Below are positions 18,897-33,985 of a stretch of DNA of 43,356 bases, in pieces (position 1 is the first letter of the stretch; each line of letters begins with the position of its first letter). This DNA comes from an uncultured Oscillospiraceae bacterium. Its GTDB lineage: Bacteria; Bacillota; Clostridia; Oscillospirales; Oscillospiraceae. The notes beneath the pieces are model-generated. The model was not told the DNA's origin, ran no database searches, and was given only the letters and a program-made list of their open reading frames with translations. The position numbers were made by a program, and so were the translations under genes. Location: contig CAYPEE010000001.1 in the NCBI GenBank assembly GCA_964409665.1, forward strand, positions 16,844 to 60,199, given 5' to 3'.

Positions 18897-18911
18897 AAGG
18901 AGGGGGTCGAA

Positions 18912-19679: not shown

Positions 19680-19683
19680 TCGC

Positions 19684-20556
19684 GTGGAATCTATCGGCGA
19701 CATCATGGCCGGCATGATCCAGAAAAGCCTTCAGAACGAAGAACCCGGCGACTACTACGGGGAAGACGGCTTCCTTTACTGCGGGAAGTGCCACACCCGG
19801 AAACAGTATGAAATCACCCTTCCGGCCGACGGGGACGGGACGGAACGGAAGGTCCGCGTCGGGATCGCCTGTAAGTGTCAGGCGGCCGTCCTGGAAGCGG
19901 AGGAACGCGAACGCGAACGGAAGGACTTCGAACAGCGCATGGAAGCCCTTCGGCGGGACGGGATCACCGACCCGGCCTATTTGCGATACACCTTCGCCCA
20001 GGACGACCGCCGGAACCCCGACGTCACGGACGTCTGTCTTCGATACGTCCAGAACTGGAAGGAAATGAAGGCGGAAAACATCGGAATCCTGTTCTATGGC
20101 GACGTCGGGACCGGGAAGTCCTTCCTGGCGTGTGCGATTGCGAACGCCCTTCTGGGGCGCCTGGTCAGCGTCAGCGTGACCAACTTCCCCCGGCTTCTGA
20201 ACGCGATCCAGGGGACCTTCGACGAAGAACGCCAGCGGCGGATCGACAGCCTTCAGCGATATTCCCTTCTGGTCATTGACGACCTGGGGGTCGAGCGCGA
20301 CACGGCGTTTTCCGTCGAACAGGTCTACAACGTGATCGACACCAGGGCCAGGTCCGGGAAGCCCGTGATCATCACGACGAATCTGTCCATGAAGGACCTT
20401 CAGAACCCGCCGTCCCTGGCCTATAAGCGAATCTATGACCGGGTCCTGGAAATGTGTCCGATCCGGCTGAAAATGGTCGGAGAATCCCGCCGCGCCGGCA
20501 ACGCGAACGAACGCCGGGAACTGGCGCGGCGGCTTCTGGGCCTGGAAGGGGCGTGA
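19684..20556 (+). CDS. DnaC/IstB-like AAA+ helicase loader
   Basis: CGKC..CKC zinc site, GDVGTGKS Walker A, LLVIDDLG Walker B, ITTN, RIYDRV; start uncertain (19684 or 19705). Confidence 0.88.
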   Translation: MESIGDIMAGMIQKSLQNEEPGDYYGEDGFLYCGKCHTRKQYEITLPADGDGTERKVRVGIACKCQAAVLEAEERERERKDFEQRMEALRRDGITDPAYLRYTFAQDDRRNPDVTDVCLRYVQNWKEMKAENIGILFYGDVGTGKSFLACAIANALLGRLVSVSVTNFPRLLNAIQGTFDEERQRRIDSLQRYSLLVIDDLGVERDTAFSVEQVYNVIDTRARSGKPVIITTNLSMKDLQNPPSLAYKRIYDRVLEMCPIRLKMVGESRRAGNANERRELARRLLGLEGA

Positions 20557-20560
20557 CACC

Positions 20561-20977
20561 GTGAAACAGTACAGACTGACGATCCCCGGCGTCCTTCCCG
20601 GCCTGAATGAGTACATCGACGCGGAGCGCGGCCACAATGGGAAATACAAGGCCGCTTCCATGAAGAAACAGGCCCAGAACGTGATCGGCTTCCTGGTAAA
20701 GACCCAGCTTCTGGGCGTTCACTTCACCCGCCCCGTGATCATTCGCTACTTGTGGATCGAACCGTCCCGCCGGCGCGATAAGGACAATATCGCCTTCGCG
20801 AAGAAGTTCATACAGGACGCCCTGGTCGAAGCCGGGACCCTGAAGAACGACGGCTGGGACGAAATCGCACAATTCACCGACGACTTCGCCGTGGACCGGA
20901 AGAACCCCCGGATCGAAGTCACGATCGAAGAAATCGAAGGAGGAACCCGAAATGGGAAAAGCAACCGTAAAAATTAA
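20561..20977 (+). CDS. RusA-like Holliday junction resolvase
   Basis: RRRDKDNI...KFIQDALV...ND...NPRIEVTIEE. Confidence 0.8.
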   Translation: MKQYRLTIPGVLPGLNEYIDAERGHNGKYKAASMKKQAQNVIGFLVKTQLLGVHFTRPVIIRYLWIEPSRRRDKDNIAFAKKFIQDALVEAGTLKNDGWDEIAQFTDDFAVDRKNPRIEVTIEEIEGGTRNGKSNRKN

Positions 20978-21662
20978 GGACCTGGCCCCCGGCGCGGTCT
21001 TCGACACCGGGATCGAGGGCGTCAAGGCCCAGATCATGGAACACTTCGCGACCGGGGAAACCCTTCTGGTGACGGCGGCGCCGATCGGCTTCCGGCCCTT
21101 CACCGTCCGCCCCTTCACCTTCAGGGAACCCAGCGACGAAAACGCGAAGCCGAACAACTTCGCCTTCGCGTCCCTTCGGAACGACCTGAATAACGACTTC
21201 CTGGACGCCCTGGTCGACGGCGGCGTGATCCCCTATGAGCGAATCAGCGACACCGCCTGGGACCTGTCCGACCACCAGGGCGGCCCCGGCTATGGGTCCG
21301 TCACCTGTAAGGTCGGAATGTTGACCGAACCCCAGGTCAGGAAATACTTCGACGCCGGCCTTCTGAAGATCGAAGACTGGGAATGGACGATCACCCCGAG
21401 CGCCGGCAACGCGAACTACGCGCGGCACGTCAACCCCGACGGGAGCCTGAACCACTACAACGCGTACGTCGGCCACAACGGCGTTCGGCCGGCTTTGGTC
21501 GTGGATTCTGACATCTGTCTATCCCTGGAACCTGACGAAGTCGACCTGTCGGATTCCGTTCTGTTGCGGGAATACAGTTCGAAGCGCCTTGTCGAAGAAG
21601 TCCTTCGCCGGATCGCCGCCGGGGAGGAAGACACGGCCGACGACGACGGGGACGAATGGTAA
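20952..21662 (+). CDS. DGR target protein 2 (DUF6273-like / CLec-type domain), early-region gene
   Basis: NNFAFASLRNDLN...KVGMLT...WEWTITP...GVRPAL; contains VR2. Confidence 0.85.
   Translation: MGKATVKIKDLAPGAVFDTGIEGVKAQIMEHFATGETLLVTAAPIGFRPFTVRPFTFREPSDENAKPNNFAFASLRNDLNNDFLDALVDGGVIPYERISDTAWDLSDHQGGPGYGSVTCKVGMLTEPQVRKYFDAGLLKIEDWEWTITPSAGNANYARHVNPDGSLNHYNAYVGHNGVRPALVVDSDICLSLEPDEVDLSDSVLLREYSSKRLVEEVLRRIAAGEEDTADDDGDEW
21393..21497 (+). repeat. DGR variable region VR2
   Basis: 105-nt ungapped match to TR; 10 mismatches, all at TR adenines. Confidence 0.95.
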
Positions 21663-21898
21663 AGTCCGCCGCCCTGAAGGCCAGGGTCGAAGACAGGATC
21701 GGGGCCGCCCTTCCGGCTGACGTCTTCGACCAGGCCGAACAATACGCGCGCCGGAAGCTGGCCCTGATCAACGCGCGCGCCGGCCGTCAATACGGCGAAG
21801 ACGGCTACGGCGACGAATACCTGGTCATTCTGGCCGTCGAGATCGTCCGGGAAATGGCCCTGACGGCCTACCTGAACGGGAAGGGGGCGGCCGTATGA
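21656..21898 (+). CDS. Phage hypothetical protein
   Basis: Overlapping start/stop with neighbours; phage codon usage. Confidence 0.65.
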   Translation: MVKSAALKARVEDRIGAALPADVFDQAEQYARRKLALINARAGRQYGEDGYGDEYLVILAVEIVREMALTAYLNGKGAAV

Positions 21899-22125
21899 GA
21901 AGGCGGAAGGAACCGCTTCCGAAATGGGTCTACGCCTTTTCCTGTCGGAAGTGTCAGAACATTCAGTTCGTCCACGACGAAGCGAAGGGCCGCGACGGCG
22001 ACTACTGCGTGAAGGCGATCGAGCGCGCCGGCGCCGGCCTTCCCGGCCCGATACACGCCGACGACGACCGCGTGGTCCGCTGTGATTGCTTCAGCCCGAT
22101 CCCGGAAGAAGGCGATCCTGGGTGA
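21895..22125 (+). CDS. Small Cys-rich phage protein
   Basis: CRKC...C...CDC; ATGA/GTGA overlaps. Confidence 0.55.
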   Translation: MRRRKEPLPKWVYAFSCRKCQNIQFVHDEAKGRDGDYCVKAIERAGAGLPGPIHADDDRVVRCDCFSPIPEEGDPG

Positions 22126-22670
22126 TACCATTCCCGGACAAAAAGTATTCCGTGATCTACGCCGACCCGCCCTGGTCCTACACCGCCGGCGGGAAACAAA
22201 GGAACGTCCGCCGGCATTACCACACAATGGCCCCGGAAGACATCTTCGACCTTCCGGTCCAGGACATAGCGGCCGACAACTGTCTTCTGTTCCTATGGGC
22301 CACATTCCCGAACCTGGACGTCGCCCTTGAAACGATCCGGCGCTGGGGCTTCAAGTATAAGACCGCCGCCTTCGTCTGGGTCAAGCGGAACAGGAAGTCC
22401 CCCGGCTTTTTCTGGGGTATGGGAAACTGGACCAGGTCGAACCCGGAAGTCTGCCTTCTGGGAGTGAAGGGAAAGCCGACCCGCGCGTCGGCGTCAGTCC
22501 ATAGCGTGATCGAAGCCCCGATCGGCCGGCATAGCGAGAAGCCGGCGGAAACCCGCGACAGGATCGTCCAGCTTGCGGGGGGGGGTCCTATGATCGAACT
22601 ATTCGCACGAAAGACCGCCCCCGGCTGGGACGCCTGGGGCGACGAAGTCGAAGGGAGTGACACACAATGA
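22122..22670 (+). CDS. MT-A70 family adenine methyltransferase
   Basis: YSVIYADPPW, LFLWAT, WGFKYKT..FVWVK, HSEKP, IELFAR, GWDAWGDE. Confidence 0.9.
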   Translation: MIPFPDKKYSVIYADPPWSYTAGGKQRNVRRHYHTMAPEDIFDLPVQDIAADNCLLFLWATFPNLDVALETIRRWGFKYKTAAFVWVKRNRKSPGFFWGMGNWTRSNPEVCLLGVKGKPTRASASVHSVIEAPIGRHSEKPAETRDRIVQLAGGGPMIELFARKTAPGWDAWGDEVEGSDTQ

Positions 22671-23032
22671 GCGACACCAACACCACCCGCGCCAGGGTGG
22701 AAGCGGCCCTGGCCGAACGGCTGAAGGCCAGGATCGGCCCGAACGCCGGGATTCTGGCGGACGACCTTCTGGACGACCTGATCGCCGCCGGCGGCGTCCT
22801 TCTTCCTGTAAGGCCGAACGGGACCGTCTGGGTGATCCACCGCCGGCGCGCCGTGTCCGCGACCGTCATGTTCGCCGGCGTCGGCGCTGACGGCCTGGCC
22901 GCCTTCAGCGTCCTTCGCGGCCGGCTGGGGACCACCGCCTGGTCGTCCATGAACTTCACGGAACACGACATCGGGAAGGCCGTGTTCCTGACGCGGGAAG
23001 ACGCCGAAGCGGCCCTGAAGGCGGAAGAATGA
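22667..23032 (+). CDS. Phage hypothetical protein
   Basis: C-terminal IGKAVFLTREDAEAAL motif common in Firmicutes phage early proteins. Confidence 0.65.
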   Translation: MSDTNTTRARVEAALAERLKARIGPNAGILADDLLDDLIAAGGVLLPVRPNGTVWVIHRRRAVSATVMFAGVGADGLAAFSVLRGRLGTTAWSSMNFTEHDIGKAVFLTREDAEAALKAEE

Positions 23033-23217
23033 GGGACCGGGGATTCCTTGAATCCGTCCGGCGGAAGCAGACCGACCGGCTGAAGGTCTGTGAAACCTGT
23101 GGAAACCTGGTCCGCCTGGGCGGAACGCTGATCGGCTGTGAAGCCCATGACAAACTGATCCTTCCCGACTATCTCCCATACCACGGGAACATGACCTGTC
23201 CCGACTGGAAGAAATAA
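23029..23217 (+). CDS. Small Cys-containing phage protein
   Basis: CETC...C...CPDW; ATGA overlap. Confidence 0.55.
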   Translation: MRDRGFLESVRRKQTDRLKVCETCGNLVRLGGTLIGCEAHDKLILPDYLPYHGNMTCPDWKK

Positions 23218-23234
23218 CGATAAGGAGGAACCCC

Positions 23235-23612
23235 ATGACTATTTCCGACATCATTCAGCGCGCGCATGACAACGCCGTGAAACATGGCTTCTGGAACCCG
23301 GCCCCGGAGTTCGGGACCGCGATCGCGCTGATTCATTCCGAACTGTCCGAAGCCCTGGAAGAAATGAGGGCCGGGAACAAGATCAGGCCGAAGGACCCGA
23401 CGCCCATGATCTACTTCAGCGGCGGCGGATATGTCGCGACGGACCCGACCCGCGTCTGTACGAAGCCCGAAGGCGTGGCCGTGGAACTGGCCGACGCCGT
23501 GATCCGGATCGCGGACCTGTGCGGACACCTGGGGATCGACCTGGAAGCGGCGATCGCCCTGAAAATGGACTATAACGAAACGCGCCCGTTCAAACACGGG
23601 AAGCGGTTCTGA
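23235..23612 (+). CDS. MazG-like nucleotide pyrophosphohydrolase
   Basis: IALIHSELSEALEE...ELADAVIRIADL...KMDYNETRP.KHGKRF; RBS AAGGAGG. Confidence 0.8.
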   Translation: MTISDIIQRAHDNAVKHGFWNPAPEFGTAIALIHSELSEALEEMRAGNKIRPKDPTPMIYFSGGGYVATDPTRVCTKPEGVAVELADAVIRIADLCGHLGIDLEAAIALKMDYNETRPFKHGKRF

Positions 23613-23617
23613 AGGGG

Positions 23618-24058
23618 GTGGTCCGTATGCTGACGACACGCCAGAACCCGCCGGTCGAAGTCCGGCGCGGCGACGTCTTCTTCTGTCAGGGAAGCCTGGA
23701 CGGCGCCGACTGGAACACCAGGAAGACCCGCCCGGTCGTGGTCATATCGAACGACGCCGGGAACACCACGTCCCCGAAGGTGATCGTCGTGAACATGACG
23801 ACCAACGTCACCCGCCGCCTTTATCCTATGCACTTCGACATAGTGATCACAGGCCGGGGCGTGTCCCGCGTTCACTGTGAGGAAATCAGGACGGTCGAGA
23901 AGGTCGACCTGATCGACCGAATCTATTCCCTGACCCCCGAAGAAGTCCGGCACCTGGATCACTGTCTGGCCTGGTCCCTGGGTATGGCCCCCAGAAGCCC
24001 CCCAGACGCCCCAGGAAGCCCCCAGGGGCGCGGACGCCGGGGACGCCCTGTTCCATAG
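23618..24058 (+). CDS. PemK/MazF-family protein; C-terminus appears frameshifted (alternative frame continues to 24245)
   Basis: VRRGDVFF...KTRPVVVISND.GN...VIVV..TT...CEEIRTVEK. Confidence 0.78.
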   Translation: MVRMLTTRQNPPVEVRRGDVFFCQGSLDGADWNTRKTRPVVVISNDAGNTTSPKVIVVNMTTNVTRRLYPMHFDIVITGRGVSRVHCEEIRTVEKVDLIDRIYSLTPEEVRHLDHCLAWSLGMAPRSPPDAPGSPQGRGRRGRPVP

Positions 24059-24241
24059 ACTGGCCCGGAAGGGCCTGTCAGCGGCCGTCATTCCCCTTCC
24101 GCTACTGAATCAGGTGAACGTCACGATCACCGACGGCGGACAGGTCAACGTGACCCGAAACTTCACCGCCGGGATCATGGAGGGGATCAGACACATCGTC
24201 GACGTTCTGGACGACCGGGACGCCGGCGCGGAGGAAGACCA

Positions 24242-24544
24242 GTGAAGACGTGTTCCGTATGCGGCCGGAAGGTGAACGTGACGGTCGCCTGTCCATACCA
24301 GCGCCGGGGCCTGGAAACCTGTCCCGACTGTTGCGAAAAGTGCTACCAGACGACCCCCTTCCCCTGTCGGGAACACGACCAGCGGAAGGCGGCGGAGCCG
24401 AAGACCTGGGACGCCGCCGCCGCGAAGCTGGCCGGCGCCCTGGACCTTCCCGAAGACCAGGCGATCCCCTGTCTGATCGCATACGCTTGCACACGCTATG
24501 TATGGCAAGGGAAGCGACTATACAAAGATTTACAACGCGAATAA
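24242..24544 (+). CDS. Cys-rich phage protein, probably truncated/chimeric at the deletion junction
   Basis: CSVC..CPDCCEKC; last ~14 aa are an out-of-frame read of the LysM remnant. Confidence 0.5.
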   Translation: MKTCSVCGRKVNVTVACPYQRRGLETCPDCCEKCYQTTPFPCREHDQRKAAEPKTWDAAAAKLAGALDLPEDQAIPCLIAYACTRYVWQGKRLYKDLQRE

Positions 24545-24605
24545 AGGGGTGATCGGGAAGAACCCGAATCTGATCTACCCCGGACAGGTCTTCGTGATCC
24601 CATGA
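24501..24605 (+). pseudogene. C-terminal remnant of XkdP-like LysM tail protein
   Basis: YGKGSDYTKIYNANKGVIGKNPNLIYPGQVFVIP*; stop overlaps xkdQ ATG; N-terminal part absent. Confidence 0.85.
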
Positions 24606-25555
24606 CGATTCTATATCAGAACAACGTCAGCGGCGACGCCTTCGACGTCGCTTCGCTGTGTACGGCCGCGAAGTGGTCCACAAAACGGTCCGGGTCCCCC
24701 GCTTCCCTGGAACTGACCGTCATAGACCACCCGTCGGTCGAATGGGTCCACGGCGGGATCGTGGCCCTGAAGGACGACGACGGGAACGGCCTGTTCTATG
24801 GCTACGTCGTGAAGATCGGCCGGTCCGAGAAGGAACAGACCACCGTCACCGCCTACGACCAGACCTGGTATTTGAAAAGGAACAAGGAAACCTATGTCTT
24901 CAACGGGAAACGCGCCGATCAGATTCTGACGGAGATCGCCGAAGACTTCGGCCTGAAATGCGGGTCCCTTGCGAATACCGGCTATGCGATCCCGTCCATG
25001 ATCGAAGACGGCCAGACCCTTTTCGACATAGCCCTGAAGGCCCTGGACCATACCCTGATCAACCCCGGGACAATGTTCGACCTATGGGACGACTTCGGGT
25101 CCCTTCGGATCACCGACGTCGAACAGTCGAAGCTGGACCTGTACGTCGGCGACCGAAGTCTGGCGACCGGCTACACCTACGAATCGGAAATTGATTCCGA
25201 AACCTACAACAAGATCAAACTGGTCCGGGACAACAAGGAAACCGGAAAACGCGACGTTTATATCTTCCAGGATTCAAAGAACATGACCCTATGGGGCGTC
25301 CTTCAGGACTACGAATCCGTCGACGAAGATATGAACGAAGCCCAGATCAAAGAACGCGGCGGTCAAATGCTGGAACTTTACAACCGCCCGAAGAAGTCCT
25401 TCGAAGTCAAGGCCCTTCTGGACCTGTCCGTCCGCGCCGGCCGCGCCCTGTATATCGGGATCGAGCGGGTCGGCGTCAGTTCCTTCTTCATCGTCGAGGA
25501 ACACACGGCGGACCTTCTGAAGGAAACTATGACGTTGAAACTGAAGGTGGTGTGA
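24602..25555 (+). CDS. XkdQ/YqbQ-like baseplate hub protein
   Basis: TAYDQTWYLKRNKETY, SEIDSETYNKIKL, WGVLQ; order P-Q-R-S-T-U. Confidence 0.82.
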   Translation: MTILYQNNVSGDAFDVASLCTAAKWSTKRSGSPASLELTVIDHPSVEWVHGGIVALKDDDGNGLFYGYVVKIGRSEKEQTTVTAYDQTWYLKRNKETYVFNGKRADQILTEIAEDFGLKCGSLANTGYAIPSMIEDGQTLFDIALKALDHTLINPGTMFDLWDDFGSLRITDVEQSKLDLYVGDRSLATGYTYESEIDSETYNKIKLVRDNKETGKRDVYIFQDSKNMTLWGVLQDYESVDEDMNEAQIKERGGQMLELYNRPKKSFEVKALLDLSVRAGRALYIGIERVGVSSFFIVEEHTADLLKETMTLKLKVV

Positions 25556-25556
25556 T

Positions 25557-25961
25557 ATGTCTTTACTTGACGTAATGAAGAAGACCGCCGAACAGTCCCA
25601 GGGGGCCGCCGTCCCGGCGGCCTTCATGTTCGGAAATGTGACGGCCCTGTCGCCGCTGACGATCCGTGTCGACAACCGCTTCGACATATCCGGCGAAGCG
25701 ATCGTCGTCCCGAAGGAATATCGCGCCGGCTACTACCCGACACACCGTCACACCGGCTTCGCCGACAGCCCGACGACTGAATCCAGGTCCGGCGGCGCCG
25801 GCGAAGCGGCCTTCGCTGGACACGATCACGTCCTGAAGGACACCTACAAGACCAACACCGGCCAGACGTCCGAAGAATACTACGGTCTGGCCGTCGGCGA
25901 CAAGGTGGTCCTTCTTCGGAATCATGGCGGCCAGTCCTTCCTGGTCCTGGGGAGGGTGTGA
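25557..25961 (+). CDS. XkdR/DUF2577-like baseplate spike protein
   Basis: FGNVTALSPLTIRVD...GLAVGDKVVLLR..GGQSFLVL. Confidence 0.78.
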   Translation: MSLLDVMKKTAEQSQGAAVPAAFMFGNVTALSPLTIRVDNRFDISGEAIVVPKEYRAGYYPTHRHTGFADSPTTESRSGGAGEAAFAGHDHVLKDTYKTNTGQTSEEYYGLAVGDKVVLLRNHGGQSFLVLGRV

Positions 25962-25962
25962 A

Positions 25963-26391
25963 ATGGCGCTGACACCGAATCAGGGCGCGGTCACGGTCGG
26001 CGACGTGGTGGAAATCACGTCCCCGGCAGACCAGCCGACCCGAACCTATAAACTGGACCTGGACGCCGGCCGCGTGGCCGGCATGGTCGACGGCGTGGAC
26101 GCTATGAAACAGGTGATCCTGAAAATCCTGTTGACAGAGCGGTTCTCCTACCTGATTTATTCCTGGAACTATGGAATCGAACTGAACGCCGTGGTCGGGA
26201 AAAGTTATCAGGTGTTTTCAAGTGAAATCAAACGCGTTATAACGGAAGCCCTTCTGGCGGACAGCCGGATCACGGCCGTCACGGACTTCAAGGTCGAACA
26301 GATCGACAAGAGGTCCGCGCGCGTCAGCTTCACGGCGGACACCGTCTTCGGCCCGATTGAAATTGAAAGGACGGTGACGGCCAATGTATGA
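25963..26391 (+). CDS. XkdS/DUF2634 baseplate wedge protein
   Basis: AMKQ..LKILLTERF.YLIYSWNYGIE...ITEALL.DSRI...DTVFG. Confidence 0.82.
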   Translation: MALTPNQGAVTVGDVVEITSPADQPTRTYKLDLDAGRVAGMVDGVDAMKQVILKILLTERFSYLIYSWNYGIELNAVVGKSYQVFSSEIKRVITEALLADSRITAVTDFKVEQIDKRSARVSFTADTVFGPIEIERTVTANV

Positions 26392-27460
26392 AAACATGAC
26401 CTTCGAAAACATCATGGACCGCTGTCTGTCCCGCGTGTCCGCTTCCGTGGACAAACGGGAAGGGTCCATCGTCTGGGACGCGATCGCGCCGGCGGCGGCC
26501 GAACTGGCGATCATGTATATCGAACTGGCCTATCTTCTGGACAGGGCCTTCCCGGACACCGCGACGGGGGACGACCTGACGAAGAAGTGTCAGGAACGAA
26601 GCGTCTTCAGGACGGCCGCGACCTATGCGGTCCGGCGGGGCTACTTCGAAAAGGCGGACGGGTCCGGCTGTGACGTGGAGATCGGGACCAGGTTTTCCGG
26701 CGGCGGGATCAACTACGCCGCGACGGAGCGGACGGCGCCCGGTCAGTACAGGCTGACGGCCGAAACCCCCGGCGTGATCGGGAACACCTACGTCGGGACC
26801 CTGTTCCCGATCGACTATGTCCCGGACCTGGCGGCCGCGCGGATCGCGGACATTCTGATCCCCGGCGAAGACGAAGAAGACGACGACGCCCTTCGGGAAC
26901 GCTACTTCGCGTCCCTGGAATCCCAGGCGTTCGGCGGGAATATCGCCGACTACAAGGAAAAGGTCGGACTTATGGACGGGGTCGGGGCCGTGAAGGTGGT
27001 CCCGGTCTGGAACGGCGGCGGGACCGTCAAGGTCATAATCGTCGCGTCCGACTGGTCCGTCCCTTCCCCCGAACTGGTCCAGAAGGTCCAGGAAGCCGTC
27101 GACCCCGTCGGGACCCCCGGCGTCGGCCTGGGGATCGCGCCGATCGGGCACGTCGTCACGGTCGAGGGCGTGGAGGGGACGAGGATCGACGTGTCCTTCA
27201 CGCTGACCTTCGACGGCGTCACCTGGGAAGACGTGAAGGCGAACGTCGAAACGGCCCTAAAGGACTACTTCCGGGAACTGGCCCAGTCCTGGGCCGACAC
27301 CGACAGCCTGGTCGTCCGGGTCAGTCAGGTCGAAACCCGTGTCCTGGACGTGGCCGGCGTCATTGACGTCGCCGGGACGAAGATCAACGGCGCCGCGTCG
27401 AACGTGACCCTGGCGTCGAACGCGATCCCGGTCCTGGGGGTGGTCACGAATGGAAATTAA
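26384..27460 (+). CDS. Baseplate J-like protein (XkdT)
   Basis: DKREGSIVWDAIAP, EDDDALRER, GGNIADY, WNGGGTVKV, GIAPIGH. Confidence 0.9.
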   Translation: MYENMTFENIMDRCLSRVSASVDKREGSIVWDAIAPAAAELAIMYIELAYLLDRAFPDTATGDDLTKKCQERSVFRTAATYAVRRGYFEKADGSGCDVEIGTRFSGGGINYAATERTAPGQYRLTAETPGVIGNTYVGTLFPIDYVPDLAAARIADILIPGEDEEDDDALRERYFASLESQAFGGNIADYKEKVGLMDGVGAVKVVPVWNGGGTVKVIIVASDWSVPSPELVQKVQEAVDPVGTPGVGLGIAPIGHVVTVEGVEGTRIDVSFTLTFDGVTWEDVKANVETALKDYFRELAQSWADTDSLVVRVSQVETRVLDVAGVIDVAGTKINGAASNVTLASNAIPVLGVVTNGN

Positions 27461-27998
27461 GGAATACTGGCCGCGATACCTTCAGGACGTGATCGAGTTC
27501 GACCAGATCGCGAGGGCGGAACAGCCGGAGTTCACGAAGGTCCGTCAGGACGTCCAGGGCGCCCCTGACGACTTTTTTATCGTCAGCCTGTCCGACTATG
27601 GCTGTCGGCGCTGGGAAGTCATTCTGGGCCTTCCTGTGGCCCCTGACGCGCCCCTGGAAGCGCGCCGCGAAAAAATCCTGATAAAGTACCTTGACCAGCT
27701 TCCCTACACATACAGGGCGCTTCTGAAGTATCTGTCGACGGTCAGTGAAGACTTCACGGTCCGGCTGGACAATGACGCCTATGAACTGTTCCTTCGGATC
27801 GTTCTGAACGGCTACACCCAGCGGGACGCCCTTCTGGCCGTCCTGGGACAAATGCTTCCGGCGAACCTGGTCCTTCTGACCCAGACGGCGATCCCCCAGA
27901 CCGTCCTTCGGCCGGCTACGGTCGCGGCCGCCGCTATGGTCACACTGGTCAGGCACGAACACCAACCCGAAGGAGGAACTACAAATGGCCCGATATAA
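27450..27998 (+). CDS. XkdU/DUF2313 (YmfQ-like) baseplate protein
   Basis: RWEVILGL...LEARREKI...LPYT...MLPANL. Confidence 0.8.
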   Translation: MEIKEYWPRYLQDVIEFDQIARAEQPEFTKVRQDVQGAPDDFFIVSLSDYGCRRWEVILGLPVAPDAPLEARREKILIKYLDQLPYTYRALLKYLSTVSEDFTVRLDNDAYELFLRIVLNGYTQRDALLAVLGQMLPANLVLLTQTAIPQTVLRPATVAAAAMVTLVRHEHQPEGGTTNGPI

Positions 27999-28755
27999 GT
28001 CCACGATCACCGACAAGGGCGCCGAAGTCCTGACGCGCTTCGTCGCGGAAGGCCGCCAGCTTGCGATCGTCAGCGCGGCCGCCGGCGACGGCGTCGCCGA
28101 CCCGGAAGTCAGCCCGAACACGCTGACCGCCCTGATCCACCCCGTCCAGGTCCCCGCCCAGGTCGGGGAAAAGACCTTCGTCGAAGGGTCCCCGTCCTAT
28201 ATGCGGATTCCGGTCCAGGTCACGAACGCCGGCCTGGATCATAGCGAATATGTCCGCGAAGTCGCGACCTTCGCCCAGGACGAAGACGGGAATCCCTTCA
28301 TGTTCAGCTATTCATGGCTGGACGGGGAGGACAGCGACAACGTCCTTCCGCCCTGTTCCTTCCTGGACCGTGAACCCGTGGAAGGCGAAGGCGACACCGT
28401 CCACGTCCACGACGTCGCGATCGTCGTGACGAATCAGGAAAACAATTCCGCCCGCGTCGAGATCGGAAGCGGGTCCTATGTGACCACCGCGCAAATGATC
28501 GCATACGCGGCCCCCATCGTCCACGGCCACAACGCGGCGGACGTCCAGGAAAGCACCGGCGAAAGCGTGGAAACCGTTCAGCGGCGCCAAGACTTCGACA
28601 TTTCCGCTATGAAGGAACAACTGGACACCGGCTTCAACGGGACCACCGTGACCCACACGTTCGCGTCGGCCCAACTGGACCAGTGGAAGGGCTACGAAGG
28701 CGAAGGCGTCCCGGAAGGGATTCTGGACCCGACGTCCAACAGGCTTTATTTATGA
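27985..28755 (+). CDS. Tail-collar/tail fibre proximal protein
   Basis: ITDKG...GDG...VREVATFAQD motif typical of fibre N-termini; follows xkdU. Confidence 0.65.
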   Translation: MARYKSTITDKGAEVLTRFVAEGRQLAIVSAAAGDGVADPEVSPNTLTALIHPVQVPAQVGEKTFVEGSPSYMRIPVQVTNAGLDHSEYVREVATFAQDEDGNPFMFSYSWLDGEDSDNVLPPCSFLDREPVEGEGDTVHVHDVAIVVTNQENNSARVEIGSGSYVTTAQMIAYAAPIVHGHNAADVQESTGESVETVQRRQDFDISAMKEQLDTGFNGTTVTHTFASAQLDQWKGYEGEGVPEGILDPTSNRLYL

Positions 28756-29015
28756 CCAGGTTCGCCTGTACGCCGGCCGAAACGTCCTGTCTGTTATCTA
28801 ACCTTTTCACCGAATGGCGGCCCGTGTGCGGCCGCTGTGAAGGCGACAGCGTCGTTCTGTGCGGCCTGACCTATGAAGGCGAAGAACAGACCGTCGTCCT
28901 TCGGGACTACGGCTTCGACTATTCCGGCCGGCGTGACACGGTCGAAAAGATCAGGAACCGAAGGTGTATCAATGGGATCGCGAAACTACCACCGGCGCAG
29001 AGAAGACACGCATAG
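28752..29015 (+). CDS. Phage hypothetical protein (87 aa)
   Basis: ATGA overlap with previous stop. Confidence 0.55.
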   Translation: MTRFACTPAETSCLLSNLFTEWRPVCGRCEGDSVVLCGLTYEGEEQTVVLRDYGFDYSGRRDTVEKIRNRRCINGIAKLPPAQRRHA

Positions 29016-29469
29016 AGAACAGGACCCGCTTCGAATCCTTCCGGTCGCGGAAGATTTGATCGACTACACCCTGGACGTCACGGACAACGCGAAACGCTAC
29101 CCGAAGAAGGTCCGCTTCACGTTCGTCGACCGAATCCAGAATATCGTCCTGGAAGTGTACGACGACCTTCTGGCCGCGAATGAGATATTCCCGATCTGGA
29201 CCCAGAAGGACAAGGCGGACCGGCTGACCCTTCAGCGGAACGCCCTGACGGCCTGTAAACGGCTTCTGTTCTTCGTGAAGCTGTCGAAGAAGCGACACTA
29301 CATCGACGAATGGACCTTCGACACATGGACGTCGAAGGTCCTTGACGTGAAGGTCATGGCCGCCGCCTGGTACAACGCCGAACAGGCGACCCAGTGGACG
29401 CCGCCCGAAGGGGCCGCCCCGAAGGTCGACAGTCCGGCCGACGCCGCCGGCGGAAATGATAAAAACTGA
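28972..29469 (+). CDS. avd: DGR accessory variability determinant Avd (four-helix bundle)
   Basis: RYPKKVRFTFVDRIQN...AAN...RLTLQ..AL...; immediately upstream of TR and RT. Confidence 0.85.
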   Translation: MGSRNYHRRREDTHREQDPLRILPVAEDLIDYTLDVTDNAKRYPKKVRFTFVDRIQNIVLEVYDDLLAANEIFPIWTQKDKADRLTLQRNALTACKRLLFFVKLSKKRHYIDEWTFDTWTSKVLDVKVMAAAWYNAEQATQWTPPEGAAPKVDSPADAAGGNDKN

Positions 29470-29486
29470 ATAGGGTATGATCTGTT

Positions 29487-29591
29487 ACCCCGAACGCCGG
29501 CAACGCGAACAACGCGCGGAACGTCAACACCGACGGGAGCCTGAACAACAACAACGCGTACAACGGCAACAACGGCGTTCGGCCGGATTTG
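29487..29591 (+). ncRNA. DGR template repeat (TR)
   Basis: Intergenic between avd and RT; 13 AAC triplets in the VR frame; matches VR1 and VR2 except at its adenines. Confidence 0.95.
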
Positions 29592-29753
29592 GAGGAAACC
29601 GCGACCGAGTAAGGCGACGAACCTGAAAGCAGAAGACCCCCTACAAAGGAGATCATATCCTTCCCGACGTCGGAAAGACCAGGGTAAACACATGATCGCC
29701 GACGAAAGGGCTTCGGCTACGACGCCCGAACTATAAGCGGCGAGGAGGTACAC

Positions 29754-30878
29754 ATGAACACACCCCAGCCCCCGGCGGCGTCCTTCGCCGCTATGGCGGA
29801 TTTTAACAACCTATTTCAGGCATACCTGGAAGCGCGGAAGGGAAAAAGGTGGAAAAGCGCCGTCGTCCGTTATCAAGTGAACGACATTGAAAACACAATG
29901 TTCCTTCACTACCTACTGGCGGCGCGGAAATACCGAATGTCCCCCTATAATCGTTTTATGATCTACGAACCGAAGGAACGACTGATCATGTATAACAGCT
30001 TCCGGGACAAAATCGTCCAGCATAGCCTGTGCGACCACGTCCTGGAACCGCTTCTGTCGAAAACCCTGATCTATGACAATTACGCCAGTCAGAAGGGCAA
30101 GGGGACACACTTCGGCCTGGACCGTCTGAAGTCGTTTATGGAGCGATACCACCGGCAGTTCGGGGCGGACGGCTGGGTCCTGAAGTGTGATATTACGAAA
30201 TATTTCTATCGGATTGATCACGACGTTCTGAAGGCCCAACTTCGCCAGAAGATCACTGACCCCGGCGTTTTGTGGCTTCTGGATATGATCATAGATTCCA
30301 CCGAAGGGCCGGGAATCCCGATCGGGAATCACACGTCCCAATGGTTCGCGATCCTGTACCTGTCGGGAATGGACCACATGATCAAGGAACGCCTGGGAAT
30401 CAAGTTCTACGGCCGTTATATGGACGACTTCTATCTGATACACCAGGACAAGGAATATCTGGCGTATTGTCTGGAAGAAATCAAAAAGTTCCTGGTCCCC
30501 CTGGGCCTGGAACTGAATCACAAGACGGCTATTTTCCCGCTGGCCCAGGGGATCGACTTCCTGGGATTCCGAACGTATATGACCCCCAGCGGAAAGGTCG
30601 TTCGGAAGCTACGCCGCGACAGCAAAAACCGGATCAGAAGGAAACTGAAGAAGTTCCGCCGGCTTCTGGACGAAGGGAAGATCACCTTCGAAGCCGTGGT
30701 CCAGTCATATTCTTCCTGGACCGGTCACGCCGGTCACGGCAACTGTCACCACCTGATCAGGCTGACGGACGAACTGTTCTTCAGCCTGTTCAGAAAAGAA
30801 ATGGAGGAATACCATGTCAAAACAACTGTCGACGCTTCCCGTTGGATCGGTCGTCAAGTCGGTCAACACGAAGTATAA
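29754..30878 (+). CDS. DGR reverse transcriptase
   Basis: IYEPKER, RDKIVQH, KGKGTHFG, LKCDITKYF, GIPIGNHTSQ, YGRYMDDF, GIDFLG; RBS GAGGAGG. Confidence 0.95.
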   Translation: MNTPQPPAASFAAMADFNNLFQAYLEARKGKRWKSAVVRYQVNDIENTMFLHYLLAARKYRMSPYNRFMIYEPKERLIMYNSFRDKIVQHSLCDHVLEPLLSKTLIYDNYASQKGKGTHFGLDRLKSFMERYHRQFGADGWVLKCDITKYFYRIDHDVLKAQLRQKITDPGVLWLLDMIIDSTEGPGIPIGNHTSQWFAILYLSGMDHMIKERLGIKFYGRYMDDFYLIHQDKEYLAYCLEEIKKFLVPLGLELNHKTAIFPLAQGIDFLGFRTYMTPSGKVVRKLRRDSKNRIRRKLKKFRRLLDEGKITFEAVVQSYSSWTGHAGHGNCHHLIRLTDELFFSLFRKEMEEYHVKTTVDASRWIGRQVGQHEV

Positions 30879-32520
30879 CGGGGCCGTGATCCGGTTCATC
30901 GTCGGACACCAGTTTTCAGACCGGGTCGGTCTGGTGACGGAACGAATTATCACCCTGAAGTGTTTCGACGCGAAGGAGCCGTCCAACGCGAACAAAGATC
31001 AGAAGAACTACGGAAACAACCGCGCCAGCGTGTCGAACCTTCTTCAATGGCTGAACAGCGCGGCCGCCGCCGGCCAGTGGTACAGCGCCCAGCATAGCGC
31101 CGACGCCGCCCCGACGGACGCGAACGTCTGGTCAAACAATAACGAGTATGTCCAGGAAGCCGGCTTCCTGTCCTTCTTCGAAGCCGACTTCAGGAACGCC
31201 CTTCTGAACGACACGATCACCGTCGCCCTGAACACCGTGACGGACGGCGGCGGGTCGGAAAAGATCACCCGGAAGGTCCGCCTGTTGACGGAAACCGAAG
31301 TCGGCCTGGGGAACGAAAACGGGATCGTCGAAGGGGTCCAGTGGTCCTATTTCAACAGCGCCGACCGCCGGAAGGCTATGCCTACCGCCGAAGCCGTCGC
31401 GAAGTCCGAATATCAGTCGTCCAGTCTGTCGGCTACTCAAAACTGGTGGTGGTGGTTACTCACCCCGAACGCCGGCAACGCGTACCTCGCGCGGCGCGTC
31501 AGCACCGGCGGGAGCCTGGACAACTACTACGCGTGCATCGGCTACGTCGGCGTTCGGCCGGCTTTGTTTCTGGCCCCTGGGACCCTGGTATCCGATGCAA
31601 CGGACACCGACGGGGCGTATATTCTCCAGTGGAATCAGCCGCCCACGACCCCTTCGTCTATTTCTCACGGGACCCCGCGCGCCGGTCAGGCGTTGGACAT
31701 TTCCACCGGCGGGTCCACGGACCCCGAAGGTGACGGGATCACCTACACCTGGGAACGCCGGGTCGATTCCGGCGCCTACACCCAGATCGGCCAGGGCGCG
31801 GCGAAGACCGTCCGCGACACCGTCCCGACCGCCGGGACGAACTACCAGGTCCGCGTGAAGGCGGTCGACGCCCACGGCGCCGAATCCGCGTACAGGACCG
31901 GGACGGCGACGCCCATTTCCTACAACACGAACCCCGTGATCAGCGGGTCCGACGAAAACGTCGGCGCGAAGGACGCCCCCTTCGCCCATCAGTACACGGT
32001 CACGGACCAGGAATCCGCGTCCCAGACGCTGACGGTGAAGGAAACCGTCACCAACGGGGCCGAAACGATCACCCTTCGGACGTACACCGCGACAAGCGGG
32101 ACCCAGAACAAGGCGGACCTGTCCGGCGTATGGCTTCGCCTTCTGGCCGGGTCCCATGTCCTGACGATCGAGGTCAGCGACGGCGCCGGCGGGTCCGCGA
32201 TCAGGAAGATCACCTTCAGCCGGACCGTGACCAGGATCGCCGCGTCCCGCGCGGTCAGTACGGACGCCTTCGTGTCGAAGTGCTTCCTGTCCCTGTTCCC
32301 GTCCGACCGGCCGGCCGACGCCGTCCTTCACTGTGAAGTCACGAACAACCCGTTCGACGAAGTCCCGGTCTGGGAAGACATCACGTCGAAGGTCGGCCGC
32401 TTCGTCCACACCTTCACGAACGCGAAGGCGACGAAGGGGAACGGCCTGGCCTATCGGTTCTATATCACGAAGGGGTCCCAGACGATCGAAGTGATCCAGG
32501 CGACCGTCCGGTTCGCGTAA
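30814..32520 (+). CDS. DGR target protein 1: N-terminal DUF6273-like/CLec domain with VR1, then Fn3/Ig-like beta domains (putative tail receptor-binding protein)
   Basis: YGNNR..VSNLLQWLNS, KVRLLTETEVG, WWWWLLTP, GVRPAL; YQVRVKAVD..GAES Fn3-like; tail-module position. Confidence 0.85.
   Translation: MSKQLSTLPVGSVVKSVNTKYNGAVIRFIVGHQFSDRVGLVTERIITLKCFDAKEPSNANKDQKNYGNNRASVSNLLQWLNSAAAAGQWYSAQHSADAAPTDANVWSNNNEYVQEAGFLSFFEADFRNALLNDTITVALNTVTDGGGSEKITRKVRLLTETEVGLGNENGIVEGVQWSYFNSADRRKAMPTAEAVAKSEYQSSSLSATQNWWWWLLTPNAGNAYLARRVSTGGSLDNYYACIGYVGVRPALFLAPGTLVSDATDTDGAYILQWNQPPTTPSSISHGTPRAGQALDISTGGSTDPEGDGITYTWERRVDSGAYTQIGQGAAKTVRDTVPTAGTNYQVRVKAVDAHGAESAYRTGTATPISYNTNPVISGSDENVGAKDAPFAHQYTVTDQESASQTLTVKETVTNGAETITLRTYTATSGTQNKADLSGVWLRLLAGSHVLTIEVSDGAGGSAIRKITFSRTVTRIAASRAVSTDAFVSKCFLSLFPSDRPADAVLHCEVTNNPFDEVPVWEDITSKVGRFVHTFTNAKATKGNGLAYRFYITKGSQTIEVIQATVRFA
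31462..31566 (+). repeat. DGR variable region VR1
   Basis: 105-nt ungapped match to TR; 16 mismatches, all at TR adenines. Confidence 0.95.
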
Positions 32521-32534
32521 AGGAGGGAAAGACC

Positions 32535-33017
32535 ATGTTCGACCCTGGAAAATGTGACCATGTCAGCATGAAGGACGCCCAGGAGCGGGACCGCCAGAAC
32601 CCGACGGCGGCCGTCGCGCGCGCGGCGTCGATCGCCTTCGTCAGTCTGGCCGAAGCCGGTCAGATCGACGACGTGACGGCGACAGAAAACGCGGACCAGT
32701 TCGCGACCTGGGCCTATCCGGTCGACTATAAGGCCGGCCAGATCAGGCGTGACCCCCTGGACGGGAACCTGTATAAGGTCAACGCCGGCCAGGACCACAC
32801 GTCACAAGAAGGCTGGAATCCTTCACTGACCCCGGCCCTGTGGAAGAAGATCGGCGACCCGTCGGAGGAATGGCCCGAATGGTCCCAGCCCCTGGGCGCC
32901 CATGACGCCTATAACACCGGCGACAAAGTGACCTATGACGGGAAACACTGGATCAGCACCGTCGACGCGAACGTCTGGAAACCCGGCGTCTATGGCTGGA
33001 CCCAGGCCGACGAATAA
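32535..33017 (+). CDS. Tail-associated protein with CBM5/12-like carbohydrate-binding motifs
   Basis: [14 protein letters not shown]; [38 protein letters not shown]. Confidence 0.7.
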
Positions 33018-33073
33018 TCAGCATGAAGGGCGGGGGCGCGGACCCCCGCCCTTCCCGTATGGAGGGAAAAACA

Positions 33074-33985
33074 ATGATGAAAAGTAAGGTCTTCGTCGAC
33101 AAGCTGGTCGAGATCGCGACGAAGTATAAGACCCTGTATGTCATGGGGTGTTTTGGCGCCCCTATGACGGCGGCCAATAAGACCCGATACTGTAACAATC
33201 ATTCCTACAACCGGAACGCGGCCCGGACCGCTATGATCAAGGCCGCTTCCGCCGACACCTTCGGTTTTGACTGTGTGTGTTTGCTGAAGGGCGTCCTGTG
33301 GGGGTGGTCCGGGGACAAGTCGAAGGTCTACGGCGGCGCCGGCTACGCCGTGAACGGCGTCCCTGACATCGGCGCCGACACTATGATCACGAAATGTCCC
33401 GACGCTTCGACCACCGGCTGGGCCGACATGGTCCCCGGCGAAGCTGTGTGGCTGTCCGGTCATATCGGCGTATATATCGGCGACGGACTGGCGGTCGAGT
33501 GTTCCCCGAAATGGGAAAACAAGGTCCAGATCACGGCCGTCGGGAACATCGGAAAGAAGTCCGGCTACAATACGCGGACCTGGACGAAACACGGCCGCCT
33601 TCCCTATGTCGACTATTCCGACGCGGCGAAGCCGGCCGACGACACCCCGGCCCCGGCCCAGCCGGCCGGCGAAGTGGTCTACACCGTGAAGGCCGGGGAC
33701 ACCCTGTCCGCGATCGCGGCGAAGTACGGGACCACCTACCAGAAGATCTCCGACTATAACGGGATCGCGAACCCGAACCTGATCCATGTCGGCCAGAAGA
33801 TCAAGATTCCGACCGCCGGCGCCCAGGCGGCGCCGACCATTTACACCGTGAAGAAGGGGGACAGTCTGTGGAAGATCGCCGCGTCGCTTCTGGGGAACGG
33901 TTCGCGCTGGCCGGAAATCCAGAAGGCGAACGGCCTGTCTTCGACGACTATCTATCCGGGGCAGAAACTGAAAATCCCGGTCTAA
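33074..33985 (+). CDS. Endolysin: NlpC/P60-like Cys-His catalytic domain plus two LysM domains
   Basis: [17 protein letters not shown]; [13 protein letters not shown]...[14 protein letters not shown]; [13 protein letters not shown]...[10 protein letters not shown]. Confidence 0.85.

Follow-up and report, generated by a model that had tools for sequence, protein, structure and literature searches.

We analyzed a stretch of 43,356 nt (hereafter the window) from an uncultured Oscillospiraceae bacterium (GTDB lineage Bacteria; Bacillota; Clostridia; Oscillospirales; Oscillospiraceae). It corresponds to positions 16,844-60,199 of the forward strand of contig CAYPEE010000001.1 in assembly GCA_964409665.1, and all coordinates are window positions. 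The following features were found:

15408..15422, forward strand: direct repeat of 15 nt at the left border of the prophage (18 nt counting the preceding GCG)
15423..37562, forward strand: prophage remnant of 22.1 kb from an IS30-bound (IScream-type) myovirus, its ends joined in the relatives G061 and G063
15512..15775, forward strand: inward-directed, truncated IS30 HTH ORF of 87 aa (phrog_11420, E 3e-24)
17489..20977, forward strand: replication/recombination block 5' of target 2 with Gam-like, Erf-like, initiator, DnaC-like loader and RusA genes, separated by gaps of at most 15 nt or overlapping
20952..21662, forward strand: target 2, a lone DUF6273 (C-type-lectin-like) protein of 236 aa (phrog_9958, E 7e-40; pI 4.5; no hydrophobic segment)
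21393..21497, forward strand: VR2, codons 148-182 of 236 in target 2
22086..22670, forward strand: MT-A70 methyltransferase
23235..23612, forward strand: pyrophosphatase, by family match (phrog_3301)
24495..24499: deletion junction
24602..28755, forward strand: baseplate and tail-fibre genes
28972..29469, forward strand: avd (phrog_3206, E 4e-27), probable start ATG at 28972 in a frame open from 28873
29487..29591, forward strand: template repeat (TR), 105-nt aligned core with 32 A; read in the target frame it has 13 AAC codons
29592..29753, forward strand: spacer between TR and RT
29754..30878, forward strand: DGR reverse transcriptase (RT), open frame of 374 aa (RVT_1; phrog_1423, E 2e-134)
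30814..32520, forward strand: target 1, a tentaclin-type protein of 568 aa with an N-terminal DUF6273 and three predicted beta-sandwich domains (phrog_10993, 'Hoc-like')
31462..31566, forward strand: VR1, codons 217-251 of 568 in target 1
36466..37521, forward strand: outward-directed, full-length IS30-family transposase (phrog_4646, E 1e-135; rve)
37563..37577, forward strand: second copy of this repeat, 15 nt at the right border of the prophage

Structure of the prophage

The truncated IS30 ORF covers positions 2-85 of 344 in phrog_4646 and shares 30% identity with the N-terminus of the full transposase. Homologues of the IS30-type transposase were present in G061, G063, G065 and the phages nd4 and nd12. 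Among the scanned prophage ORFs, which comprised most ORFs with some small ones outside the scan, no tyrosine or serine integrase was detected, and the full-length transposase likely acts as the phage integrase. In G061 and G063 both prophage ends meet at a circle junction, across a 2-nt spacer. The 15-nt flanking repeat is not present at these junctions and is likely a target-site duplication.

Comparison with relatives located a deletion, 15.6 kb or longer, at a 5-nt microhomology (GCTAT). The genes for SSB, a late regulator, terminase, portal, head, adaptors, sheath, tube and tape-measure were lost, while the baseplate and tail-fibre genes are still present. The near-identical sister phage G061 keeps the terminase, portal, head, sheath, tube and tape-measure genes, and the undeleted flanks of the junction were seen in four other runs. 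The phage lineage is an active one, of which the copy in the window, without its packaging and head module, represents a remnant. A sequence-only reading of this DNA had stressed the remoteness of target 2; the 8.1-kb spacing is indeed present, but it results from this deletion, which shortened the locus. In the undeleted layout the remote target lies at a distance of at least 23 kb. As a smaller second possibility, the headless IS30-bound remnant may keep the DGR running to the benefit of the host.

The DGR cassette and its two VRs

As described before, avd and an intact RT flank the TR. The Pfam bAvd match to avd reached 22 bits, which is under the curated cut-off of 40 bits; the RT motifs GIPIGNHTSQ and YMDD are intact. 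Between the window and G061 the RT protein is 100% identical, the TR is the same, and TR plus spacer differ by one SNP in 284 nt. The TR-RT spacer region gave no Rfam match, and we take it, from BPP-1, to lie within the DGR RNA.

Adenine-specific differences between TR and VR are the signature of DGRs (Bordetella BPP-1). Ungapped alignment of the TR over 105 nt gave 16 mismatches to VR1 and 10 to VR2, and all 26 fell on TR adenines, so that the coordinates and counts given earlier were right. In a hypergeometric draw the chance of an all-adenine pattern is 2e-10 for VR1 and 2e-6 for VR2. Six positions were altered in both VRs, four of them to the same base. At one of the six, TR position 101 (A>C), which follows a GC-rich run, 21 of 21 VRs from 11 related records carried C; this site counts as a fixed difference between TR and VR, which leaves 15 (VR1) and 9 (VR2) mutagenised positions. 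When all 172 contigs of G000 were scanned on both strands with adenines masked (threshold at least 48 of 73 non-A positions), three copies only were returned, each with 73/73. The locus combines four features of a DGR of the BPP-1 type: an RT with an intact catalytic motif, avd beside the TR, in-frame TR/VR pairs with A-only differences and an invariant TR with varying VRs.

Adenine-directed, error-prone copying of the TR is established for BPP-1. Here, given the A-only pattern, Avd and RT would miscopy adenines of the TR RNA. The cDNA would then overwrite either locus with a stretch homologous to the TR that terminates in the GC-rich GGCGTTCGGCCGGCTTTG element, which we infer to be the homing signal. 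Alignment entropy shows that each VR recodes up to 19 residues of the DUF6273 C-type-lectin-like domain; surface exposure of these residues is taken from PMC10743442.

Variation of VR1 and VR2

Between the window and G061, VR2 differed at 16 sites and VR1 at 19, in both cases exclusively at TR adenines. Within the target-2 gene 16 of the 19 SNPs were inside VR2, which makes up 15% of the gene (Fisher p 1e-11). Public run X3 contained two VR2 alleles (depths 58 and 24) with at least six variant rows in VR2, all of those listed lying at TR adenines. These comparisons show that both loci get rewritten and identify VR2 as a live DGR target in the phage lineage. The sequence-only reading, in which one TR diversifies two targets, is borne out: against G061, VR2 is neither invariant nor changed at non-adenines, and in the reads of X3 the VR2 polymorphism listed is at A positions.

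In 10 of the 12 related records having an RT and a full-length target 2, VR2 showed 9-22 A and at most three non-A mismatches to its own TR. The VR2 of G082 had nine non-A mismatches, located at the frame edges, and that of G065 no longer fits its own TR (15 A and 14 non-A mismatches). The TRs of the relatives have diverged, sharing 63-66 of 73 non-A positions with the window TR, and the VR2s still match their own TRs. In an alignment of 52 homologues, TR-A codons had a mean entropy of 2.09 bits, compared with 0.15 for the remaining VR codons and 0.68 for positions beyond the VR.

These data bear on the view that target 2 is a bystander with a fixed cytoplasmic function, derived from a duplicated lectin domain and rewritten through a leftover homing signal, with the variation being tolerated. 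Family members do persist without a fitting TR, as in G065 and on contig 27 of G000, where a member has no TR match, so a target-2 family protein can exist undiversified. Moreover, the gene was reported in 98.8% of phages and the DGR in 68% (Toutatis preprint, bioRxiv 10.1101/2024.10.15.618418), and single-target relatives retain the tentaclin target (PMC10743442). However, the match of VR2 to diverged TRs at non-A positions needs continued homing, though a handful of substitutions in the 3' element would be enough to escape it, and the two-target arrangement recurs across unrelated phage genera. We consider a tolerated by-product improbable.

Target 1

Tentaclins are described with a seven-residue consensus in the C-terminal Ig domain (PMC10743442); the last 100 aa of target 1 share 33-36% identity with proteins of nd4, nd12, Mushu, Brigit and Toutatis. 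Its DUF6273 domain (residues 40-254, E 1e-26) contains VR1 (217-251); the 3D model of this domain is of low confidence. Past residue 277 three confident all-beta domains were modelled, colinear with tgt1 of nd4 and nd12. Targets of phage DGRs are usually tail receptor-binding proteins, and target 1 had been assigned to this class. It is likely displayed on the virion as an adhesin, but a canonical tail fibre was rejected in favour of a protein of the tentaclin/'Hoc-like' type that combines lectin and Ig domains and carries its VR internally. Following the literature, it would be expressed together with the tail genes and attached to the virion through its last Ig domain. VR1 and VR2 are both internal, neither at the gene end. 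As for an IMH/IMH* with a downstream hairpin, the predicted folds that follow the two VRs are unlike each other in an uncontrolled comparison.

Location, fold and predicted dimer of target 2

Target 2 belongs to the same family, phrog_9958, as nd4_tgt2 and nd12_tgt2. As a lone DUF6273 protein with its VR toward the C-terminus and remote from the cassette, it corresponds to the small second targets. Its position in the replication operon was confirmed, as the ORFs overlap or nearly abut. Of the neighbours named earlier, RusA (phrog_1682) precedes target 2. The MT-A70 gene follows after two small ORFs, in an exchangeable slot that holds a PAPS-reductase-like gene in G061. Going by similarity at the N-terminus, 10 of the 11 relatives examined have a RusA-like ORF 5' of target 2. 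In nd4, nd12, Toutatis and Brigit, homologues of target 2 map to early/DNA-metabolism regions. The family search gave 1152 homologues at E 0.001 or better.

The AlphaFold model of target 2 had a mean pLDDT of 64, with values below 50 in the VR, and a Foldseek search with it gave no match. In a structure comparison the best hit was the N-terminal domain of 9qa6 (Z 9.9, rmsd 3.6, 158 aligned), followed by 4eps and TvpA 2y3c. This domain of 9qa6 is described as CTLD-like (PMC12237041) and as DUF6273 (PMC12402451). By this comparison, target 2 has a C-type-lectin-like fold. An Mtd-like architecture was rejected: the model comprises one globular domain and a C-terminal helix, with no N-terminal beta-prism and beta-sandwich in front of the CLec domain.

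The protein is predicted to dimerise. Its homodimer model, with two copies folded, scored 0.68 against 0.09 for the best control (contact agreement and pLDDT at least 88% and 88, respectively); among solved structures, 20 of 30 homodimers and 1 of 23 monomers attained the mark. In nd4 and nd12, target 2 has no dimer arm (residues 44-58). The C-terminal helix (residues 210-222) is conserved, its motif being matched in 10 of 65 family representatives, and the C-terminal tails differ across the family.

Putative function of target 2

Neither an Ig anchor in target 2 nor a hydrophobic or signal-like segment in any of 120 close homologues was found, although this hydropathy screen cannot separate cytoplasm from virion because virion proteins also lack signal peptides. 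A MazG-like NTP pyrophosphohydrolase (phrog_2245) was fused to the family in 4 of 149 profile-search representatives. These are distant members known as sequences without genomic context, and they may stem from read-through between adjacent genes, since the same list includes proteins that are chimeric or frameshifted (e.g. P0196, P0131). Target 2 of nd12 is fused to a phrog_236/DUF3310-type domain. The MazG-like fusions favour a cytoplasmic role, and it is plausible, from these fusions and the missing Ig anchor and hydrophobic segment, that target 2 works inside the cell, although the place of a gene does not determine where its protein is located.

In contrast, a virion receptor-binding role has been proposed for the same family (PMC10743442). 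Target 2 would then be a second receptor-binding protein comparable to Mtd, encoded early and loaded on the tail or baseplate, as favoured by PMC10743442 and the Toutatis preprint (bioRxiv 10.1101/2024.10.15.618418). It does share the CLec-like fold and the template with the adhesin, and the conserved C-terminal helix could serve docking. Against this, neither the beta-prism and beta-sandwich of Mtd nor an Ig anchor is present (also PMC10743442), several unrelated phages encode the protein within their replication operon, its family fuses to nucleotide-metabolism domains, and the tails are variable, with the helix motif in few representatives. We rate a virion receptor-binding role as rather unlikely.

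A free competitor or exclusion factor, released at lysis or present in lysogens, would occupy the receptor or neutralise related phages, and would co-vary with the adhesin through the common template. Genes of the replication operon are normally repressed in lysogens by lambdoid logic, which counts against this, as does the lack of an export signal in the hydropathy screen. VR1 and VR2 were moreover unlike each other within every genome examined (also PMC10743442), so that a shared ligand of both targets is not expected. The common template and fold and the soluble, anchor-less nature of target 2 would suit such a factor, and a Mushuvirus tentaclin was reported to be expressed in lysogens and found in vesicles (10.64898/2026.05.08.723808). 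Altogether it appears to us a poor candidate.

We rather propose that target 2 would be made with the replication genes and stay in the cell, where it most likely would bind a strain-variable host factor, e.g. a defence protein. Its diversification would track host immunity and not receptors; we put this forward tentatively, as somewhat less probable than its negation. For the locus as a whole, the reading that one template of a complete avd-TR-RT DGR serves a virion-displayed tentaclin and a cytoplasmic, dimeric, variable-tipped lectin-fold binder of host proteins comes close to an even chance. It is doubtful whether early-operon DUF6273 proteins in general are widespread dimeric intracellular phage 'antibodies' against strain-variable defence proteins, with a lectin fold and hypermutated from the template that also serves the virion adhesin, some delivering a fused MazG-like nucleotide hydrolase. 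If target 2 does bind host defence proteins, targeted hypermutation by phages serves counter-defence besides adsorption; if the 'antibody' reading is true, phage DGRs run a counter-defence arm besides host-range switching.

Comparison with known systems

The remote two-target layout and the non-structural reading have been published already, and the window adds one lineage. The closest systems are nd4 and nd12 (OR777945, OR777946; Baykov et al. 2023, PMC10743442), whose two-target DGR comprises the tentaclin tgt1 and tgt2. Target 1 (568 vs 569/579 aa; phrog_10993 in common) shares 41-43% identity over 98%, and target 2 (236 vs 234/297 aa; phrog_9958 in common) 34-38% over about 55%. In both phages the remote VR2 lies beside DNA-metabolism genes, 11.7 and 14.1 kb from the TR, and in nd12 a member of the phrog_3301 family sits directly 5' of target 2. 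Both records hold an IS30-type transposase (47% and 61% identity to that of the window). However, they represent another phage lineage, that of the window being listed from animal gut runs; they lack the deletion, and their target 2 has neither the arm 44-58 nor the C-terminal helix. PMC10743442 reads tgt2 as a receptor-binding protein, and its main text contains no mention of replication, early, intracellular or IS30.

Toutatisvirus (FP_Toutatis; bioRxiv 10.1101/2024.10.15.618418) likewise has an avd-TR-RT-Hoc-like cassette and a distant small DUF6273 target, gp24, encoded in the early region with 13 of 14 VR mismatches at A. Target 2 did not match gp24 at E 1e-5, and the tie runs through the family. 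Unlike the IS30-bound phage of the window, Toutatis has 55 kb, is of the integrase type and infects Faecalibacterium. For CP11 and Lagaffe_CP, both VRs had been shown to vary before (Lelie/CP11, PMC11792537). A distal second VR near methyltransferases is known from Quimbyvirus (PMC8008677) and four induced gut prophage species (PMC12629997), and the authors of both studies regard the distal target as a non-structural protein in phage-host conflict. Quimbyvirus, a Bacteroides phage with a frameshifted RT, is likened to the window by layout and not by target sequence. BPP-1 (mtd-avd-TR-brt) shares Avd, TR, RT, the adenine-specific TR-to-VR change and a CLec-fold target, but has a single target, which precedes avd and has its VR at the 3' end, instead of two with internal VRs, one 3' of the RT and one remote. 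The published pattern leaves the role of the small second target as the next question, for which the family in the window offers many near-isogenic VR2 alleles, a predicted dimer interface and the MazG-like fusions.

The prophage ends resemble those of the IScream phages (PMC12823448) in the full outward IS30 transposase, the truncated inward IS30 ORF, no other integrase found and the circular junction in relatives. IScream phages are defined with a full set of structural genes and the production of virions, whereas the window copy, a remnant of such a phage, has lost terminase, portal, head, sheath, tube and tape-measure. The main text of PMC12823448 makes no mention of a DGR, an inverted repeat or a target site duplication, and neither the flanking repeat of 15 nt nor the 2-nt spacer of the circle nor a link to a two-target DGR was found in the available part of that source. 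The repeat and the spacer at the IS30-bound ends provide a testable detail on IScream integration.

Template and variable repeats of the DGR

The three repeats of the diversity-generating retroelement (DGR), comprising the template repeat (TR) and the variable repeats of target 1 (VR1) and target 2 (VR2), were confirmed at the positions reported in the sequence-only reading.

29487-29591, TR
31462-31566, VR1, internal to target 1 (30814-32520; codons 217-251 of 568)
21393-21497, VR2, internal to target 2 (20952-21662; codons 148-182 of 236)

Over 105 ungapped bases TR differed from VR1 at 16 and from VR2 at 10 positions, as counted previously. The adenine specificity claimed for these mismatches was borne out as well, since all 26 were located at one of the 32 TR adenines (hypergeometric probability 2e-10 for VR1 and 2e-6 for VR2). 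Six sites were changed in both VRs, four of them to the same base. The genes flanking TR were indeed avd (phrog_3206) and a reverse transcriptase (RT) of 374 aa with the motifs GIPIGNHTSQ and YMDD. When the entire assembly (172 contigs, 80% complete) was scanned with adenines masked, only these three copies of the repeat emerged, and no further VR was found in the host genome at a level of at least 48 of the 73 non-adenine positions.

The A>C exchange at TR position 101 was present as C in 21 of 21 VRs from 11 related records and is therefore a fixed difference between template and target, which probably reflects the IMH*/IMH distinction. Rfam families were not detected within 15300-37700, and the promoter and terminator scans remained near shuffle level (6 vs. 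3.4 and 32 vs. 24.6, respectively).

Variation of VR2 among strains and relatives

The sister phage G061 (an IMG/VR record) was approximately 98% identical to the prophage (15423-37562) and carried an identical TR. Within the target-2 gene 19 SNPs were found, 16 of them inside VR2 (Fisher p 1e-11). All 16 were located at TR adenines, as were all 19 differences found in VR1. A fossil duplication as the origin of VR2 was rejected, because the differences between strains were confined to TR adenines. An invariant VR2, or changes at non-adenine positions, had been named beforehand as speaking against an active target; this was not the picture in the relatives.

In total, 33 virus records were reached via RT relatives. 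A full-length target 2 was found in 12; the VR2 count excludes the other 21, in which it was not found. Most of these were 52-86% complete, but G080, G091, G092 and G093 were at least 90% complete; G091 carried a distant hit. In 10 of the 12 records VR2 fitted the record's own TR with 9-22 adenine and at most three non-adenine mismatches. The non-adenine mismatches in record G082 were located at the edges of the 105-nt frame used. VR2 of record G065 was off-pattern against its own TR (15 adenine and 14 non-adenine mismatches) and VR1 of this record fitted; a swap of the allele or of the cassette is likely, or this VR2 may be stale.

Among 52 aligned target-2 homologues the entropy was 2.09 bits at the 19 VR2 codons whose first or second base is an adenine in TR, compared with 0.15 bits at the remaining 16 codons of VR2 and 0.68 bits elsewhere. 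The region was covered by contigs from four public runs, each belonging to a different study. One run contained two VR2 alleles, and the VR2 differences among those listed were at TR adenines in six of six cases; this comparison used only contigs, matched at 80% likeness, and the presence of two strains would give the same picture. RNA datasets were not present among the sequencing runs listed. Any match to target 2 was restricted to three of 61 related bacterial genomes (the source assembly G000, G016 and G023). Taken together, we regard a DGR with two live targets as practically certain.

Genomic position of target 2 and the deletion

Target 2 overlaps rusA by 26 nt and belongs to a series of Gam-like, Erf-like, initiator, DnaC-like and RusA genes in which no gap exceeds 17 nt. 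Of 11 relatives compared, 10 had a RusA-like ORF ahead of target 2. The slot downstream is variable, carrying an MT-A70 gene in the window and a PAPS-reductase-like gene in G061. Of the setting proposed from sequence, RusA and the replication operon stood, and the MT-A70 neighbour proved to be exchangeable.

Two-target DGRs have been published for the gut phages nd4 and nd12. The nd4 homologue adjoins a DNA-polymerase exonuclease and a methyltransferase; a pyrophosphatase precedes the nd12 homologue, to which a phrog_236-type domain is fused. Homologues in the early region are also found in Toutatis (gp24) and Brigit (gp06). In Brigit gp06 (L123 4373-4452, NC_047909) seven of nine mismatches over 80 nt were at TR adenines, and on this alignment the early gene probably carries a second VR; the accessible text of the Brigit paper names only the Hoc-like target (PMC5883640).

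Relative to G061, at least 15.6 kb are missing from the window at 24495-24499, and the two sides meet at a microhomology of 5 nt. Among the genes lost are those for SSB, both terminases, portal, minor head, adaptors, sheath, tube and tape measure; a scan of them named no major capsid family. The packaging, head and sheath module is gone, and the genes for baseplate, tail fibre, DGR and lysis were kept. The distance of about 8 kb given earlier for target 2 reflects this shortening; in the intact phage it amounts to at least 23.3 kb along the prophage, or 14.1 kb by way of the circle. With the module missing, this copy could not package itself. A blastn search with G061 30450-37471 and 3862-8602 found neither stretch elsewhere in the 80% complete assembly, and contigs of all four public runs compared had undeleted flanks. 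With so short a microhomology, a genuine deletion appears more likely than a join made during assembly.

Further differences from G061 were observed. A PemK/MazF-like toxin gene is located on a 618-nt insertion (23616-24233) in place of one base; the insertion was absent from G061 and all four public runs compared, and an antitoxin was not identified. Two stretches were not alignable to G061, where the catalytic part of the endolysin (33119-33623) and the region of a sigma-factor-like gene (16382-16789) are exchanged between the sister phages.

Structure and family of the target proteins

Target 1 starts with a DUF6273 domain (40-254), modelled with low confidence, behind which three beta-sandwich domains are predicted with confidence. 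It matched phrog_10993 ('Hoc-like') along its whole length and shared 41-43% identity with the nd4 and nd12 tentaclins. A search of solved sequences gave nothing below E 0.05. A protein of the Bacillus jumbo phages AR9 and PBS1 shares 37-39% identity with the lectin domain of target 1.

Target 2 is a lone DUF6273 protein (phrog_9958), a family shared by the second targets of nd4 and nd12. Its model was of moderate quality (pLDDT 64, VR under 50) and gave no Foldseek match at E 0.001. In a wide structural search only the N-terminal domain of 9qa6 matched clearly (Z 9.9, rmsd 3.6, 158 residues), followed by 4eps and the DGR protein TvpA; profile search reached the same 9qa6 chain (E 6e-4). This domain is described as C-type-lectin-like (PMC12237041) and as DUF6273 (PMC12402451) in the accessible parts of the respective papers. 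Atlas hits were restricted to DUF6273 or unnamed clusters.

Two-copy prediction placed a homodimer interface at residues 44-58, with VR residues 172-175 at the rim. The score was 0.68 (best control 0.09), contact agreement and pLDDT were at least 88% and 88, respectively; 20 of 30 solved homodimers attained the mark, as did one of 23 monomers. The model supports putative homodimerisation via residues 44-58, an arm which target 2 of nd4 and nd12 lacks. Dimerisation via the C-terminal helix, our initial expectation, was discarded as the model puts the interface on 44-58.

Profile search of the target-2 family yielded 888 clusters at E 0.001. For fusions, 20 long representatives were scanned against PHROGs, and a custom profile was run over all 269 proteins retrieved. 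Four of 149 new representatives (P0171, P0180, P0211, P0223), known from their protein sequences, carried a C-terminal MazG-like NTP pyrophosphohydrolase domain (phrog_2245), in which the acidic motifs EExxE and ExAD are kept. Chimeric products were also present among the representatives. A description of a DUF6273-MazG fusion was not found in the literature searched, which covered few subscription papers.

Possible role of target 2

In BPP-1, TR RNA is copied with errors at adenines, as summarised in PMC10743442. Avd and RT would act likewise here, and the cDNA would replace VR1 or VR2, where rewriting is indicated by the strain comparison and the homing signal is presumed. Either VR could be replaced because both keep the non-adenine scaffold and a GC-rich 3' element. 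The thirteen AAC codons would thereby alter a single patch of a lectin-like fold that both targets share in different settings. It is likely through its last Ig domain that target 1 is displayed on the virion, where such display is itself only likely.

None of 120 close target-2 homologues had a hydrophobic or signal-like stretch. Together with the gene position and the MazG-like fusions this favours a cytoplasmic target 2 but falls short of proof; we consider such a location somewhat more probable than not. In the accessible text of PMC10743442, which describes the pair of tentaclin and small target and reports that either VR varies at adenines (39 and 13 genomes), the small target is proposed as a receptor binder and its gene position is left undiscussed. 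A second receptor-binding protein on the virion would agree with this proposal and with the fold shared with target 1, and is set against the early gene position; we hold it to be rather unlikely. A free competitor or exclusion factor, which could use the same fold, seems still less likely, and the same holds for target 2 as a bystander.

A cytoplasmic target 2 would be made early, retained in the cell and bind a host protein that varies between strains, counter-defence being the most plausible purpose. A distal second target near methyltransferases has been read as non-structural and conflict-related (PMC8008677), and this reading was repeated for four prophage species (PMC12629997), as far as the accessible texts go. 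The boldest reading, an intracellular hypermutated counter-defence binder, is rather unlikely, and the model as a whole, with a virion-displayed target 1 and a cytoplasmic, host-protein-binding target 2, is tentative, falling a little short of an even chance.

Pairs of a Hoc-like and a remote DUF6273 protein are reported for Toutatisvirus (bioRxiv 10.1101/2024.10.15.618418) and for Lelie and CP11 (PMC11792537); PMC5883640, 10.64898/2026.05.08.723808 and PMC13432834 provide context, their accessible parts holding no small-target data. The two-target finding is real and well supported, and its layout and interpretation are already described. The remaining value of this prophage is as a tractable handle on the unsolved function of target 2.

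Prophage ends

In the circular relatives G061 and G063 the equivalents of positions 37562 and 15423 are connected through a variable spacer of 2 nt (TT, CT). The prophage ends are flanked in the window by a 15-nt direct repeat.

15408-15422, left copy of the direct repeat
15423-15775, left end with an IS30 ORF (87-aa HTH fragment, inward-directed)
36466-37577, right end with an IS30 ORF (full IS30-family transposase, outward-directed) and the right copy of the direct repeat

This arrangement corresponds to the IScream layout of IS30-bound phages, as given in the accessible text of PMC12823448. An IS30 transposase of the same type occurs in nd4 and nd12, so that these phages with published two-target DGRs may likewise belong to the IScream group. 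A link between IScream and two-target DGRs was not found in the literature searched, which covered few subscription papers.

A second IS30-bound remnant of approximately 4.3 kb was observed on contig 27 of the assembly (L070 6101-10402). A TR match was not found for its target-2 paralogue, which is accompanied by an IS30-HTH-like ORF, three more ORFs and an IS30 transposase matching that of the window at 49%.
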